A stretch of DNA of 64,000 bases, taken from a virus. Its lineage: Duplodnaviria > Caudoviricetes. The notes beneath the pieces are model-generated. The model saw only the letters and a list, made by a program, of their open reading frames with translations. It made no database searches and was not told the DNA's origin. A program made the position numbers and the translations under genes. Shown piece by piece: positions 113 to 62,712 of the stretch; the first letter of the stretch is position 1; each line of letters opens with the position of its first letter. The DNA is taken from IMG/VR virus record IMGVR_UViG_3300024331_000231, positions 1 to 64,000 of that record. One strand, written 5' to 3'.

Positions 113-185
113 TTAGTAAAGTTAGTCTTTTTAGAGAAATAAGTTTACACAAGTTAGTTTTTTTAGTTATTCTAGTGAAATAAGC
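113..185 (+). promoter_or_regulatory. Two runs of TTAGT-like direct repeats at 9-bp period, probable repressor operator upstream of the RAMP-like operon
   Basis: TTAGT(113)-aaag-TTAGT(122)-cttt-TTAGA(131)-gaaa-TAAGT(140); TTAGT(154)-tttt-TTAGT(163)-tatt-CTAGT(172)-gaaa-TAAGC(181). It abuts a -7-like TATCTTGT at 186-193. Confidence 0.6.
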
Positions 186-209: not shown

Positions 210-809
210 ATGGCCAAAACATCAGTGTCCGTAGAAGTCGTTGAATTCTCCATCCAACAAGTCATCATCCCCATTAAAGGCATCTCCCCTCTCATTGTTC
301 ACGCCTGGTCGGAAAAATCCAAGAAAATGATCGCCGACAAACAGGCCGGGAAAGCCAAGAACAAAAAGCACGAAATCCGTAACCCTAAGGAAGAATATGA
401 AGCGGCCAAACATATTGCCGTCGCCGGCTGGGAAGGATACCCCGCTGCTGGCTTCAAAGCTGCGATGATCCGGGGAGCCAAAATGATCGGGATGGTCATG
501 AAAGACACCCAGACGGCCTTTTTTATCCACGCCGATTGCGAACAGACGCAACTAGTCAAGATCATCGGCAAAAGCAAAATGCGCGATGACATGGTCCGGG
601 TCGGGATCGGTGCTTCCGATATCCGGTATCGGCCGGAGTATACCGAGTGGTCTGCCAAATTGACCGTCGAATTCAACGCCGGCATCCTTTCGATCGATCA
701 GATCCACCAACTGGTCAAGGCGGCCGGCTACGGCTGCGGAATCGGGGAAATGCGCCCAGAAAAAGGAAAATTCAATTATGGACGTTTTAAATTAGCCAAT
801 GAAAAATAA
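210..809 (+). CDS. RAMP/Cas7-like RNA-binding protein (Vipr-like)
   Basis: RAMP-style motifs in the expected order: N-terminal strand IKGISPLIVH, GYPAAGFKAAMIRG (cf. Cas7/Csm3 IPGSSLKGxxR), DIRYRPEY..W, and C-terminal glycine-rich loop AGYGCGIGEMRPEKG..YGRF. Adjacent to the pentamer array. Confidence 0.75.
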   Translation: MAKTSVSVEVVEFSIQQVIIPIKGISPLIVHAWSEKSKKMIADKQAGKAKNKKHEIRNPKEEYEAAKHIAVAGWEGYPAAGFKAAMIRGAKMIGMVMKDTQTAFFIHADCEQTQLVKIIGKSKMRDDMVRVGIGASDIRYRPEYTEWSAKLTVEFNAGILSIDQIHQLVKAAGYGCGIGEMRPEKGKFNYGRFKLANEK

Positions 810-1381: not shown

Positions 1382-2276
1382 GGCAGTTATGATTTGGCAT
1401 GGTCCGGATTGGCCCTCAAAGGCTAGGAATGCTAAGGTTTGGTAAGGCAGAAAAGGTACGGAATGGCATGGACAGGAAACCAAAAGTAGTATGAGACTCG
1501 GTTTGGCAGATAGGGCCCGGAGTGAATAGGACAGGCCATCAAAGGAACGCTAAGGAATGGTTCGGTTAGGAGAGGCAGCTGCGGATGGGTATAGACCGGT
1601 TAGGCTGGGAGTGCCTAGCACTGGAGTGGTGCGGTGCGGTGGGATTTGGCAGCTATGGATTGGATCGGGGGCGCCGGGTTTGGTGCTCAAAGTCGCGCTG
1701 CGGAGAGGCAGCCATGGATTGGTGTGAGTAGGAACGGCTTGGTATGCAAGGACTCGTTTCGGATGGGCAGTAAAGGACCCTAAAGGAACGGAGTGTTCAG
1801 GCTCGTAAAGTTTGGGTAAGGCAGTTTTGGACTGCAAAGGATGGGCGAGATCGGGTTTGGAAGTCTCGGGTAAGGTACGGCAGTAAGGGCAAGGTTTGGC
1901 GGGGTATTGAAAGGTCGGTTTTGATAAGGTGAGGCAGTTGTGGTGGAAAGTGGGAAGGAATGGCAAGGTCAGCTATGGTACGGTTCTCTTTGGCAGCAGG
2001 GGCTGCGTGTGGCCGATTTGGACTGGCAAGCAATGGAAAGGCACATTTAGTTTCGCATGGGTGTTCTGAGGTATGGCAGTTCAGGTAAGCGTTGGACTGG
2101 AAAGGTATGGATAGGTTCTCCGAGGAGCGGCAGTTATGGAACGGTGAGGAATCACTTGACCAGGAATGCTTAGGTATGGTATGGCAATGCAGGGATCGCT
2201 GAGGAGCGGCAGTAATGGCAAGGAAGTCATTGGTGAGGCATGTTTGGGACCGATGTGGTAGGGTATGTTGCGGCAG
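1382..2276 (+). repeat. Pentamer-phased GGH-NN array with 15 GGCAG delimiters; putative guide-RNA (vrRNA-like) array
   Basis: GGCAG at 1382, 1446, 1505, 1574, 1648, 1707, 1766, 1820, 1879, 1933, 1992, 2075, 2129, 2208, 2272. Spacings are 64, 59, 69, 74, 59, 59, 54, 59, 54, 59, 83, 54, 79, 64: all 5n+4 except 83, which is 19+64 via GGCCG at 2011. By hand count 99 of 151 internal pentamers start with GG. Confidence 0.92.
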
Positions 2277-2336
2277 GAGAAGAATTCCCTATCTTCGCTC
2301 CGGCTTTTAATAGGATATTGAATTTAAACACATCCG

Positions 2337-2360
2337 GGCCCCTGTTCTCAGGGGCCTTTT
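2337..2360 (+). terminator. Rho-independent terminator closing the RAMP-partner-array transcript
   Basis: GGCCCCTG-ttct-CAGGGGCC followed by TTTT. Confidence 0.75.
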
Positions 2361-2599
2361 GTCGCCCAAAGCTCCTTAAAGCGAATACCGGCCACCAAAC
2401 AATTCAAAAGCCCCAATATTGTGTTACAACAACCTCTTTGGTAATCGTTTAGATATAAGTGTCCAACCCTCAAAATAAAATGGAATAAGAAGATCAATAA
2501 TTGGAAACCTCCCCATGTTATGGCTATTTTACACCATATTGCCCAGGCTCTTTTCTTTTGTAGCTGTTCCGTAAATTGATCTAGTATATGCTCTTCCAT
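2348..2599 (-). CDS. Small membrane protein, hypothetical
   Basis: 83-aa ORF with two hydrophobic segments, convergent with the array. Confidence 0.55.
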   Translation of the reverse strand: MEEHILDQFTEQLQKKRAWAIWCKIAITWGGFQLLIFLFHFILRVGHLYLNDYQRGCCNTILGLLNCLVAGIRFKELWATKGP

Positions 2600-17928: not shown

Positions 17929-19515
17929 ATGCACAAAAAGACACTTTACGGATCAGAAGCCAGGGAAAAACTACTTTCTGGCATCAACAAGATCAGCAAC
18001 GCCGTCGCCGTCACGCTCGGCCCTCTCGGCCGAAATGTTTTCATCGCCCAGAGTTACGAAGCCAATTATGGCACTCACTCCTACCCTATCGAAGTCACCA
18101 AAGACGGCTACCGGGTCACCCAGCGGTTTGACTTGGAAGACTTCTTTGAGAAGGCCGGGGCGGTTATGGTTAAGGAATGCGCCCAAAAAAGCGTAGATCA
18201 GAGCGGCGACGGGACTACCACGACGGTTATTCTAATGCGACACATGGTCATGGAGGGTATGAAAGCGGTCGAAGCCGGGGCCAACCCCGTCGAATTGAAA
18301 CGGGAGATCGATGCGGCTATTAGCCGGGTCGTGGGACAACTTCGCAGCCGTTCGGTGCAAATCGGTCATGATATCGAAAAAATATACCAGATCGCGACCA
18401 TCTCTGCCAATAATGATCCAGAGATTGGGCGCCTGATTGCTGACGCTTTCAAAAAAATTGGATACGAAGGTATGATCGATATCGAAGCCGGTAAAAGCGT
18501 CACGACGGAAATAAAAATAGCTTCCGGTTATCGGTTTGAGCGCAGTTGGGAAAGCCCTTTCTTTATTACCAATAAAGAGAAGCAAACGGTCGAATTTGAA
18601 GATCCATTGATCCTTCTATACAACCGCGTCATTACTTCCAGCAAACAGATTCGCAGGGCTACCGAAATTGCGTTGAACTCCTCCAAACCGCTGCTTATTA
18701 TTTGTCCCGGCGCAGAGACCGAAGGTCTGGCTATGCTGGCGGGTAATGCCTTCAAAGGGAATATTAAGTGCTGCGTCGTAAAAGCACCTGCGATCGGTGA
18801 AGCTCAGCGCATCGAAATGGAAGATCTGGCCATCCTCACAGGAGCCACGTTCATGGGGGACAATAGGGGAGAAGACGTGAAAGAAATTCTGCCCAAACAA
18901 TTCGGAACAGCAAAAAAAGTGATCGTTACCAAGGATGACACTACGATCATCGAAGGCGAAGCCAACAAACAGGCCTTGGAAGATTTACTCGTGGAACTCA
19001 GAATCAACAAAGCCCAAGCCAAAAATGAGGAAGAAGCGGCGCCCATCGAAAAAAGGATAGCCAAACTCACAGGGGGGGTCGCCGTAATCCAGGTAGGAGC
19101 CGCTACCGAAACCGAGATGAAAGAAAAGATGGACCGCTTCGACGACTCCGTTCGGGCCGTCAAGTCTGCAATAGCCGAAGGCTATACGGTAGGAGGGGGG
19201 ACTGCGTTGCTTCGGATACGTTCGGGCAACAAGATCGTAGACTCTGCCATGGACAAACTGCTGCAGCAGATCTGTTGGAATGCTGGTCTGCGTCCCAAAA
19301 AATGGTGGCATTTCTGGAAATCCAAGCACGTCTTTGACCTGGTGAAGGAAGCTCGGGGAAATATCGGCTACAACGCCAAGACAGGTAGGATAGAGGACTT
19401 GATCGAGGCCGGCGTCATCGATCCCGTAAAAGTCCTCCGCTGCGCCCTTCAGAACGCTGCCAGCAGCGCCGGGATGGTGCTGACATCCGAATGCTTAATC
19501 GTAGATAGTTATTAA
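17929..19515 (+). CDS. groEL: Chaperonin GroEL (phage-encoded)
   Basis: VAVTLGPLGRNV, VTKDG, GDGTTT, VVKAP, IAKLTGGVAVIQVGAATETEMKEK, GVIDPVKV. Confidence 0.97.
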   Translation: MHKKTLYGSEAREKLLSGINKISNAVAVTLGPLGRNVFIAQSYEANYGTHSYPIEVTKDGYRVTQRFDLEDFFEKAGAVMVKECAQKSVDQSGDGTTTTVILMRHMVMEGMKAVEAGANPVELKREIDAAISRVVGQLRSRSVQIGHDIEKIYQIATISANNDPEIGRLIADAFKKIGYEGMIDIEAGKSVTTEIKIASGYRFERSWESPFFITNKEKQTVEFEDPLILLYNRVITSSKQIRRATEIALNSSKPLLIICPGAETEGLAMLAGNAFKGNIKCCVVKAPAIGEAQRIEMEDLAILTGATFMGDNRGEDVKEILPKQFGTAKKVIVTKDDTTIIEGEANKQALEDLLVELRINKAQAKNEEEAAPIEKRIAKLTGGVAVIQVGAATETEMKEKMDRFDDSVRAVKSAIAEGYTVGGGTALLRIRSGNKIVDSAMDKLLQQICWNAGLRPKKWWHFWKSKHVFDLVKEARGNIGYNAKTGRIEDLIEAGVIDPVKVLRCALQNAASSAGMVLTSECLIVDSY

Positions 19516-59079: not shown

Positions 59080-59787
59080 TTATTCACTTAGTCGTCCGAT
59101 GACGTCCCCGCCATAAGCGTTTTTAGTTAGTTCAATAAATTGCTCTACGGTCATGGTGGATTTTATATCTATTGCATTCTGAAACACCCACATATCCTTT
59201 CCAGACTTGCAAGAACCGGTCAAAAGAGAATGCCAATCGTAAAACAACGCCGCTGCATACGGAACTCCTTTCTTGAATTTAGCTTTAAATTGTTCTATTT
59301 TTTCTTCTACGGTCTGGGAGACCATCCATTTTGCTTCTACTTGATCTACGGCCTCCTTAAGAGTATACCCATGTGCAAAAAGGCCATATCTCTTTGCAAC
59401 GTACATCCTTTTTTTGCCAAGCGAGGCCGTATCGATCACTTCAACTAACGCGTACTCCTCTTTTATTGACTTAATGACGCAAGGGATGCCGTCAATGTAA
59501 TGAACGGGCGCTTTTTCGTATGATTGAAGTTTAATTTTATCACCGTCGCCGGAGCCGTCGCCGTCGCCGTCGCCGTAGCCGTCGCCGTAGCCGGAGCCGG
59601 AGCCGTAGCCGGAGCCGGAGCCGTAGCCGGAGCCGTCGCCGTAGCCGGAGCCGGAGCCGTAGCCGGAGCCGTCGCCGTAGCCGTCGCCGTAGCCGTAGCC
59701 GGAGCCGTCGCCGTAGCCGTCGCCGTAGCCGTCGCCGTAGCCGTAGCCGGAGCCGGAAAGGAATTGTTTAATCTTTACTGCTTCCAT
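59080..59787 (-). CDS. Phage protein with N-terminal (G-S/Y/D)n repeat
   Basis: GSGYGYGDGYGDG tract encoded by 6-bp units at 59542-59757; C-terminal LTGSCKSG motif. Confidence 0.75.
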   Translation of the reverse strand: MEAVKIKQFLSGSGYGYGDGYGDGYGDGSGYGYGDGYGDGSGYGSGSGYGDGSGYGSGSGYGSGSGYGDGYGDGDGDGSGDGDKIKLQSYEKAPVHYIDGIPCVIKSIKEEYALVEVIDTASLGKKRMYVAKRYGLFAHGYTLKEAVDQVEAKWMVSQTVEEKIEQFKAKFKKGVPYAAALFYDWHSLLTGSCKSGKDMWVFQNAIDIKSTMTVEQFIELTKNAYGGDVIGRLSE

Positions 59788-61239: not shown

Positions 61240-62712
61240 ATGGATCCATTGCAAGAGGAGATATTGATGGACGAGTTCCGCAAAGGCAGTCAATTGGCCT
61301 TTAAACGGGTATTCGATGAGCTTAATGAGCATTTGGTATGGTGGTGTAAATGGTCATTTAAACTTGAGATGGAGGAAGCGGAAGACGCGGTTTCCGAAGC
61401 CTGGGTGAAAGTGTATAAAAACAGGGGGGATTTAAAGAGCTATGAGCATGTGAAACGATTTGTGCATGTGGTTATCCGGAACCAATTAATCGATCGACAT
61501 CGAGCTGAGGTGACCAAAAGAAAGGCTATTGAGAATTACACCTTTCTGCATACCGAAGAAATGGAGTGGGAAGGAGCATCAATTTCAAAAAAGGACGAAC
61601 TATTGGACAACCTGCCTGAATTAATTCAGCGAGTAAAAGGGAGACGCGGACGGGCATTGCGGCTGTATTTCGTTGAACAGAAGGACACGGGGGAAATAGC
61701 TGCGTTAATGGGAATTACCAGGCAAAGTGCGCTTAACTTGAAAGCTCAGGGAATAGACCAAATTAGGCAATTTATCGAAAATAATGCGTCACTGCCTGAA
61801 ATTCGCAAGAGTACGAATTCGAGGGAAGAAGAGGAGGATTTGGAAAAGGCAGTTTTTGCAGCCAATTTGCCTAAATTCCTCAATCATGTGAATTCGAAAA
61901 CAAAGCGAGTTCTTTCGCTTTATTTTCTGGAAAGAAAAAAGACGCAGGAGGTAGCCGCTGAAATGGGAATACCTGCTCAGAGCGCATTGAATTTGAAAAG
62001 TCAAGGAGTAGCCACAATTAAGGCGATCATGGCCGCTAATAATTCGTCGTTTCCTGCTGATAGCGAGAATGAAGCAGAGCCGATTGTTGCCGTGCCTGAG
62101 CTCGCAACGGTATTGGTGGAAGAACCAAGGCCGGTTTTCGTAGTTTCGAATTGGCAACGTGTCACGCATTTAGAGGAATTGATGAAAGGGTTCAAGGCAG
62201 GAGAGCGGGACGCGTTCCGTTACGTCTATGATCTTTGCAATCGCCAGTGGTTCGGCTTCTGTTTGAGTTTGGAGTTGATCGAGCCAATCGAGGATGTATT
62301 AGCGGATCTATGGTATTTGATCTTTGTAAAAAGGGAACAATTCAAGGATTTTAGGCACGTGAGAAATTACGGTTACGTGTATTTGCGGCATTATTCGATT
62401 AATAGCGCAATTGCTTTGCGTAGAAAGGAGCGAGCACTCGCCAGTGTGGCCATTACAAGGGATTATCCAAAAGAATGGGACAGCAAATTGAATTACAACG
62501 CGATAGCCATACATATACTTGAATTGCTCAACCGTTCGAAGCGCGCAGCAGGCGCCAAAGTGTTACGACTGCAATTTTTTTATGACATGAGTGTAGAAGA
62601 TATTGCGGAGCGATTGGGTATTAGTGTGAAGGCTGCGTATAAGAACAGGTCCCACGCGTTGGAGCATTTGAAAGAGCAATTATCTGAACAAAAAAATTGG
62701 CTACTATGTTAA
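61240..62712 (+). CDS. Tandem ECF-type sigma factor (sigma2-sigma4-sigma4-sigma2-sigma4)
   Basis: AFKRVFD..EAEDAVSEAWVK..RNQLIDRHR; two near-paralogous HTHs (EIAALMGITRQSALNLK, EVAAEMGIPAQSALNLK); second AFRYVYD block; DIAERLGISVKAAYK. Confidence 0.75.
   Translation: MDPLQEEILMDEFRKGSQLAFKRVFDELNEHLVWWCKWSFKLEMEEAEDAVSEAWVKVYKNRGDLKSYEHVKRFVHVVIRNQLIDRHRAEVTKRKAIENYTFLHTEEMEWEGASISKKDELLDNLPELIQRVKGRRGRALRLYFVEQKDTGEIAALMGITRQSALNLKAQGIDQIRQFIENNASLPEIRKSTNSREEEEDLEKAVFAANLPKFLNHVNSKTKRVLSLYFLERKKTQEVAAEMGIPAQSALNLKSQGVATIKAIMAANNSSFPADSENEAEPIVAVPELATVLVEEPRPVFVVSNWQRVTHLEELMKGFKAGERDAFRYVYDLCNRQWFGFCLSLELIEPIEDVLADLWYLIFVKREQFKDFRHVRNYGYVYLRHYSINSAIALRRKERALASVAITRDYPKEWDSKLNYNAIAIHILELLNRSKRAAGAKVLRLQFFYDMSVEDIAERLGISVKAAYKNRSHALEHLKEQLSEQKNWLLC

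Follow-up and report, generated by a model that had tools for sequence, protein, structure and literature searches.

A tailed-phage VIPR locus with a staggered guide array that probably silences recombinase and helicase genes of resident mobile elements

VIPR systems consist of Vipr, Vap and vrRNAs built from 9-16 GGY/NN pentamers. When reading DNA they skip one base at a time, usually at a wobble position, and they repress transcription (10.64898/2026.04.26.720920). Staggered arrays with 1-nt overlaps are known from fig. S18 of the same source, and alternative NNNGG repeats from its Methods. Cryo-EM resolved one Vipr per pentamer, and a pocket of the SUSP1 protein bars a purine at the third base (10.64898/2026.04.26.720927). 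A SUSP1 guide placed on the active-site codons of a satellite recombinase blocks excision (10.64898/2026.10.15.759431).

The locus presented here lies in a window of 64,000 nucleotides (positions 1 to 64,000 of the IMG/VR record IMGVR_UViG_3300024331_000231). The contig of 75.9 kb belongs to a tailed phage, as seen from its portal, large terminase and structural protein genes; upstream of the portal and terminase genes it also encodes a GroEL chaperonin (17929-19515; phrog_5725, E 4e-126). We consider it very probable that the locus is a VIPR system of this tailed phage and that its guides are directed at mobile elements resident in the host, whose recombinase and helicase genes they would silence. 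In common with the published staggered arrays, it comprises vipr, vap and a non-CRISPR pentamer array in a phage, a 1-nt overlap of units, a 1-nt skip on wobble positions, targets on either strand and no self-target. The skip-one code, its wobble alignment and arrays with 1-nt overlaps are already published (2026). The main text of that paper names no GGCAG delimiter, no Bacteroidota hosts and no targets of staggered arrays (10.64898/2026.04.26.720920).

The vipr gene and the candidate vap gene

The locus and its surroundings comprise the following features.

163..171, + strand: TTAGTTATW motif, 38 nt upstream of the vipr start
210..809, + strand: vipr, 199 aa, a minimal RAMP (Cas7-like) protein with a C-terminal G-loop
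799..1377, + strand: candidate vap accessory gene, 192 aa, overlapping the vipr stop; phrog_15946, E 8e-11
1382..2276, + strand: staggered vrRNA array, 14 GGCAG-delimited units (15 with U11 split)
2277..2366, + strand: structured 3′ region with a GC-rich hairpin (2337-2356) followed by T4; fold z -2.7

The only PDB sequence match of the 199-aa ORF, which was assigned to phrog_4652, is the SUSP1 Vipr 36pp (E 6e-5 with the single sequence, 3.8e-14 with a profile). Its AF2 model (pLDDT 92) found Csm3/Cmr RAMPs as top Foldseek matches with TM up to about 0.5. Homologues are numerous (676 close ones, 3192 at the 50% cluster level) and carry invariant Gly residues in the G-loop. The G-loop, the thumb Arg and the first-strand His are shared with SUSP1 Vipr. 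Trp178 of the SUSP1 G-loop, which stacks on G2, is replaced by Met in 120 of 120 close homologues, all of which also have small residues at the positions tentatively aligned to SUSP1 E71/M72. As far as this weak alignment can be relied on, the two replacements may explain the looser scaffold of the array.

Between vipr and the array, a gene of 168-197 aa is also present in related contigs. The Atlas neighbours of the 192-aa vap candidate are unnamed viral clusters, and Pfam and NCBIfam hold no entry naming Vipr or Vap. Both genes are intact. No nuclease was detected in the vipr-vap-array locus. Ten copies of the TTAGTTATW motif occur in the window (at 163, 3435, 4363, 4372, 6003, 25485, 53621, 58331, 61161 and 61170) as compared to 0.79 expected, and a tandem pair precedes a sigma-factor gene at 61240. 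The motif is a candidate promoter or operator element of the phage.

The SUSP1 type II system resembles the phage locus in its homologous Vipr and in guides directed against active-site codons of recombinases. It has four tailed vrRNAs, whereas 14 staggered units without tails are found here, and the structured pseudoknot tail of SUSP1-like type II systems is absent. Class 1 CRISPR-Cas shares the RAMP fold (Cas7/Csm3 on crRNA) and a protein filament on a guide from a multi-unit array. Class 1 systems rely on contiguous pairing and repeats, whereas pairing here is gapped, there is no repeated 22-mer such as CRISPR repeats would give, identical repeats of 23-47 nt with contiguous spacers are absent, and there are no cas genes among the annotated ORFs. 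The phage locus has what characterizes VIPR: a stand-alone RAMP homologue with an RRM core, a thumb and a G-loop, a minimal vipr-vap locus in a phage, 11-16 pentamers per regular unit, a skip-one wobble code on either strand, self-matches below 80% and a 1-nt overlap of neighbours in the array.

Grammar of the staggered array

GGCAG occurs 15 times between 1382 and 2272, with spacings of 64, 59, 69, 74, 59, 59, 54, 59, 54, 59, 83, 54, 79 and 64 nt. Mononucleotide shuffles contained 1.8 copies on average and 8 at most. Thirteen of the 14 spacings are 4 mod 5 (P ~5e-8 for any one residue class). A unit opens on the last G of one GGCAG and closes on the last G of the next, and every regular unit therefore consists of whole pentamers. 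One G is common to neighbouring units, giving the 1-nt overlap in 13 of the 14 units. The first-pass annotation had described each unit as GGCAG, a 4-nt linker and a run of pentamers. Its 5n+4 rule is borne out by the 13 spacings, and its view that the 1-nt phase slip at GGCAG marks unit boundaries agrees with fig. S18 of 10.64898/2026.04.26.720920. The linker has to be abandoned, as these bases belong to the first coding pentamer. Accordingly, the dinucleotide strings that it had extracted are correct in their letters but omit the first dinucleotide of each unit. Its counts by hand (99 of 151 pentamers with GG, 2 of them with G and about 39 with A in third place) came to 100 of 152, 2 and 39 when repeated in the same parse.

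In the staggered parse, the scaffold is mostly GG[T/A/C]. GG is followed by T 37 times, by A 37 times, by C 16 times and by G twice, which corresponds to GGH and not to strict GGY; about one third of the pentamers of the array lack GG. GGA is as common as GGT and takes part in the code, whereas the third base of SUSP1 is a strict pyrimidine. The one irregular spacing was resolved by phasing forward and backward.

1996..2079 (83-nt spacing), + strand: U11, a 20-nt stub followed by the 65-nt unit U11b (2015-2079)

The stub is closed by a variant delimiter, GGCCG (2011-2015).

The 75.9-kb contig contains no other strong period-5 GG tract, and the array recurs unchanged in two other assemblies. 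No reading frame longer than 57 codons crosses it on the + strand, and an Rfam search of the array gave no match. The units abut directly, carry no 3′ tail or pseudoknot and are unstructured (folding z ~0 to +0.8). The region downstream of the array, 2277..2366, is a candidate terminator; a terminator scan made no call there. Two units, U12 and U13 (2075-2133 and 2129-2212), have the same final dinucleotides (ga, gc) before GGCAG, and U5 nearly so, which is a possible trace of unit duplication. Elsewhere in the window, a 6-nt unit is repeated 35 times at 59543-59755 within the minus-strand ORF 59080-59787. This tract encodes a dipeptide repeat and has no connection with the array.

Related viral and metagenome loci retain the order vipr, gene of 170-200 aa, GGCAG array. 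Their GGCAG spacings are 4 mod 5 in 72 of 89 cases, some of the loci being near-duplicates.

Guides matching recombinases, integrases and a helicase

Vipr homologues from genome collections sit in Bacteroidota MAGs, one of them labelled Segetibacter. Therefore, the family of this genome was chosen for the target search, which covered 301 genomes and has Dinghuibacter silviterrae as one member. Both Segetibacter and Dinghuibacter belong to the Chitinophagaceae, and the host of the phage is probably a Chitinophagaceae bacterium. Each guide dinucleotide was read as the first two bases of a codon, and reversed patterns served as controls. Eight guides (U1, U3, U4, U5, U6, U8, U10 and U14) were searched in the family genomes, and skips other than 1 were run against fetched loci. 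U3 and U8 had been chosen by eye from the codon reading, and only the 11 best dinucleotides of U3 were kept; U5 was not a choice by eye. Three of the eight guides each match one gene family in codon phase with the wobble base skipped, and the genes concerned are intact or recognisable.

1824..1883, + strand: U8, sense match to the DRFSR catalytic motif of large serine recombinases
1509..1578, + strand: U3, antisense to box I (catalytic Arg region) of Bacteroidota tyrosine integrases
1652..1711, + strand: U5, antisense match on the SAT motif; the gene is an SF2 helicase of the strawberry-notch type in an integrated, apparently tailless virus-like element
L156:9143-20000 and L157:1-6279 (G101): example of the conserved integrated Chitinophagaceae element matched by U5; 11 similar loci

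Allowing up to two mismatches, U8 gave 13 matches in 12 of the 301 genomes, as compared to one for the reversed control. All of them lie on the DRFSR motif, which occupies residues 75-83 in the intact recombinases (PF00239, PF07508, PF13408). At five of the 13 loci the conjugative genes traK, traM and traN are found within 10 kb. The first 11 dinucleotides of U3 matched 54 times in 43 of the 301 genomes, 12 times with a single mismatch, and the control not at all. The 20 matches examined are on box I of tyrosine integrases (PF00589, PF13102, PF17293), and the remainder have the same codon string. In the string search that the first-pass annotation had proposed, run here against reversed controls, the skip of one base was enriched for U8, U3 and U5. 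Its proposal that the dinucleotides form a gapped target code is supported by this enrichment, by the codon phase and by the published VIPR code. The same code, together with skipped bases that keep codon phase in real genes, speaks for its suggestion that skipping one base tolerates wobble mutations.

U5 gave 16 matches at three mismatches (control, 6). Twelve of them fall on one site, nine with a single mismatch (21/22). The protein is a helicase of 1550-2280 aa (PF13872, PF13871), and the 12 loci around it share all or part of a module of about 17-20 kb. The module codes for a transglutaminase-like protein and several small proteins, for lysis functions (endolysins and a spanin-like protein) and for an ATPase, often accompanied by a serine recombinase. 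A scan of ten module genes revealed neither a terminase nor a portal. One of its proteins, of 239 aa, is about 70% identical across Bacteroidota and has 1495 homologues. In its structural model a helical N-terminal part is joined to a single jelly roll, and structurally it comes closest to the capsid proteins of SPV1, PBCV-1 and EhV-201, with middling scores (Z ~8, rmsd 3.5-4.8, Foldseek E ~2e-4). Because the scores are middling, we only infer from the model that the element may be a tailless provirus or a capsid-forming satellite. A literature search matched it to no described virus family, which does not prove that it is undescribed; the group is possibly an undescribed family of integrated tailless viruses.

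Might the array be a simple-sequence or protein-coding repeat that matches host genes by chance? One of its minus-strand frames is open over 163 codons. The E values come from an independent-base model in which reversed controls occasionally reach 0.0005, so that single matches are weak. An origin by chance is hardly credible, since the matches of U3 and of U8, each far in excess of the control, are on one motif in codon phase, the nine one-mismatch matches of U5 share one site, and a Vipr homologue adjoins the array.

Further searches gave no additional target. A perfect target was not found for any guide (best, 21/22), and exact-match scans with U3, U8 and U5 in IMG/VR and with U8 in metagenomes were empty. 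In the family genomes, the matches of U1 were heterogeneous and nothing stood above the control (6 versus 2), and U4 (0 versus 0), U14 (1 versus 1), U6 (10 versus 6) and U10 (8 versus 10) behaved similarly; a guess by eye that U6 spells an integrase motif failed on these counts. For U2, U7, U9, U11b, U12 and U13, the best skip-one match in 3.4 Mb of fetched loci was no better than those with other skips. A self-target search with skips 0-3 gave nothing, the best skip-one self-match of the 13 regular guides being at most 75% and that of U11b not significant at any skip. Likewise, 70 guides compared with about 350 kb of related VIPR-phage DNA had no match at any skip, and the phage itself contains no homologues of the target genes. 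A code in which the third scaffold base specifies the skipped one was rejected, as agreement was at chance level (29%).

Across nine decoded guides, the first pentamer matched the target in 83% of cases and the terminal AG in 13%, with U5 as an exception. Judging from these alignments, the terminal AG of GGCAG is mostly not code. GGY pentamers matched in 70%, GGA in 81% and pentamers lacking GG in 75% of cases; all these rates are conditioned on guides that had found matches. They bear on a further explanation, namely that the array is one long unprocessed RNA or a degenerate, inactive relic. Units that are unfolded and, compared with type II vrRNAs, lack a 3′ tail or pseudoknot would fit such an RNA, as would the stub in U11 and the third of pentamers without GG. 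We nevertheless regard it as improbable: the deviating pentamers match targets as often as GGY does, relatives retain both the delimiter and the phase slip, and neither vipr nor vap is damaged.

Proposed mode of action and breadth of targeting

Taking the locus as an active VIPR system, we propose the following course of events. vipr, vap and the array would be transcribed on the + strand as one precursor. By analogy with fig. S18 and from the sequence, processing of the precursor at each GGCAG would yield vrRNAs of about 55-80 nt, with neighbours sharing one G. As shown for SUSP1, one Vipr subunit per pentamer would grip three scaffold bases and present two variable bases. These would pair with double-stranded DNA two at a time with every third base skipped, as in SUSP1 and as the target matches show for the code used here. 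Since the skipped bases fall on codon wobble positions, synonymous changes would not permit escape. The output is most likely a block of transcription, as no nuclease was detected in the locus, and by analogy with the family it would involve filament assembly and steric silencing. The guides would be aimed at serine recombinases of ICEs, at tyrosine integrases and at the helicase of a tailless-virus-like provirus. During infection, resident elements would then stay locked in the chromosome, as has been demonstrated for the satellite of SUSP1, and would be unable to excise, replicate or compete. Three of the 14 guides spell conserved motifs of such elements, which suggests that the phage shuts down competing elements in its host.

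How many elements a guide serves is a separate matter. There is about an even chance that each guide targets one specific rival element and that the focus on catalytic motifs reflects ascertainment, because only conserved motifs are recognisable when the true host and its elements are missing from the databases. In accordance with this, three of eight searched guides were decoded and none perfectly. The last two dinucleotides of U3 mismatch in the family members found, and one base of U5 disagrees with nearly all of them, as expected for a single unsampled variant. However, U5 and U8 match many family members at 21/22, so that breadth follows if one mismatch is tolerated. Moreover, guides of relatives independently match the same gene classes. 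Guide L024_10 matches box II of an integrase at 23/26 with a skip of one. Genome-wide, guide L029_2 gave 12 matches (control, 4), 11 of them on one motif of IS1595 transposases. Four further guides, from the L026, L027, L029 and L034 arrays, match these transposases elsewhere, at 20/24 to 22/26 and always in codon phase. In that comparison, E values below 0.01 were reached in none of 222 tests with skips 0, 2 and 3 and in 3 of 296 with reversed guides. In total, five guides from these four relatives match IS1595. L024_10 and four IS1595 guides had no part in picking the fetched loci, and they matched at skip 1 only.

A Bacteroidota phage clade in which staggered arrays constitute a broad anti-mobilome panel is a reading that we advance tentatively and judge rather unlikely. 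Its guides would be kept matched to near-invariant catalytic codons, and each would silence many family members instead of one satellite. Such a panel would cover IS1595 transposons, resident conjugative elements and mobilisable elements with an integrase, together with the possibly undescribed tailless viruses whose capsid has a single jelly roll.

With our study, natural targets are decoded for a staggered-array VIPR; none is reported in the published main text. Serine recombinases of the ICE type, the helicase of a jelly-roll element and IS1595 transposases do not appear as targets in the main texts of the VIPR and SUSP1 papers. Predicted VIPR targets, so far satellites and prophages, thereby come to include insertion sequences, conjugative elements and an element resembling a tailless virus. 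The reading frame of staggered arrays is fixed: the first pentamer codes, GGCAG is a fixed handle, and GGA and non-GG pentamers code as well. Guide-target pairs are now concrete for a reporter assay, and programmable repression tools could profit from a compact multiplex array whose scaffold is relaxed.

The arrays of related loci differ in ways that hint at diversification of guides via slippage and recombination between pentamers. Whole or half units are shared and shuffled among L004-L008 and between L034 and L035. Unit 2 of L008 contains a threefold internal 15-nt duplication, and in L035 two units of L034 are fused by a deletion. Additional period-5 GG tracts occur away from vipr (L032:5443-5740, L032:2836-2988, L024:9298-9481 and, on the minus strand, L026:3095-3263). 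Two of these tracts were examined and do not have GGCAG delimiters; the tracts possibly represent solo vrRNAs.
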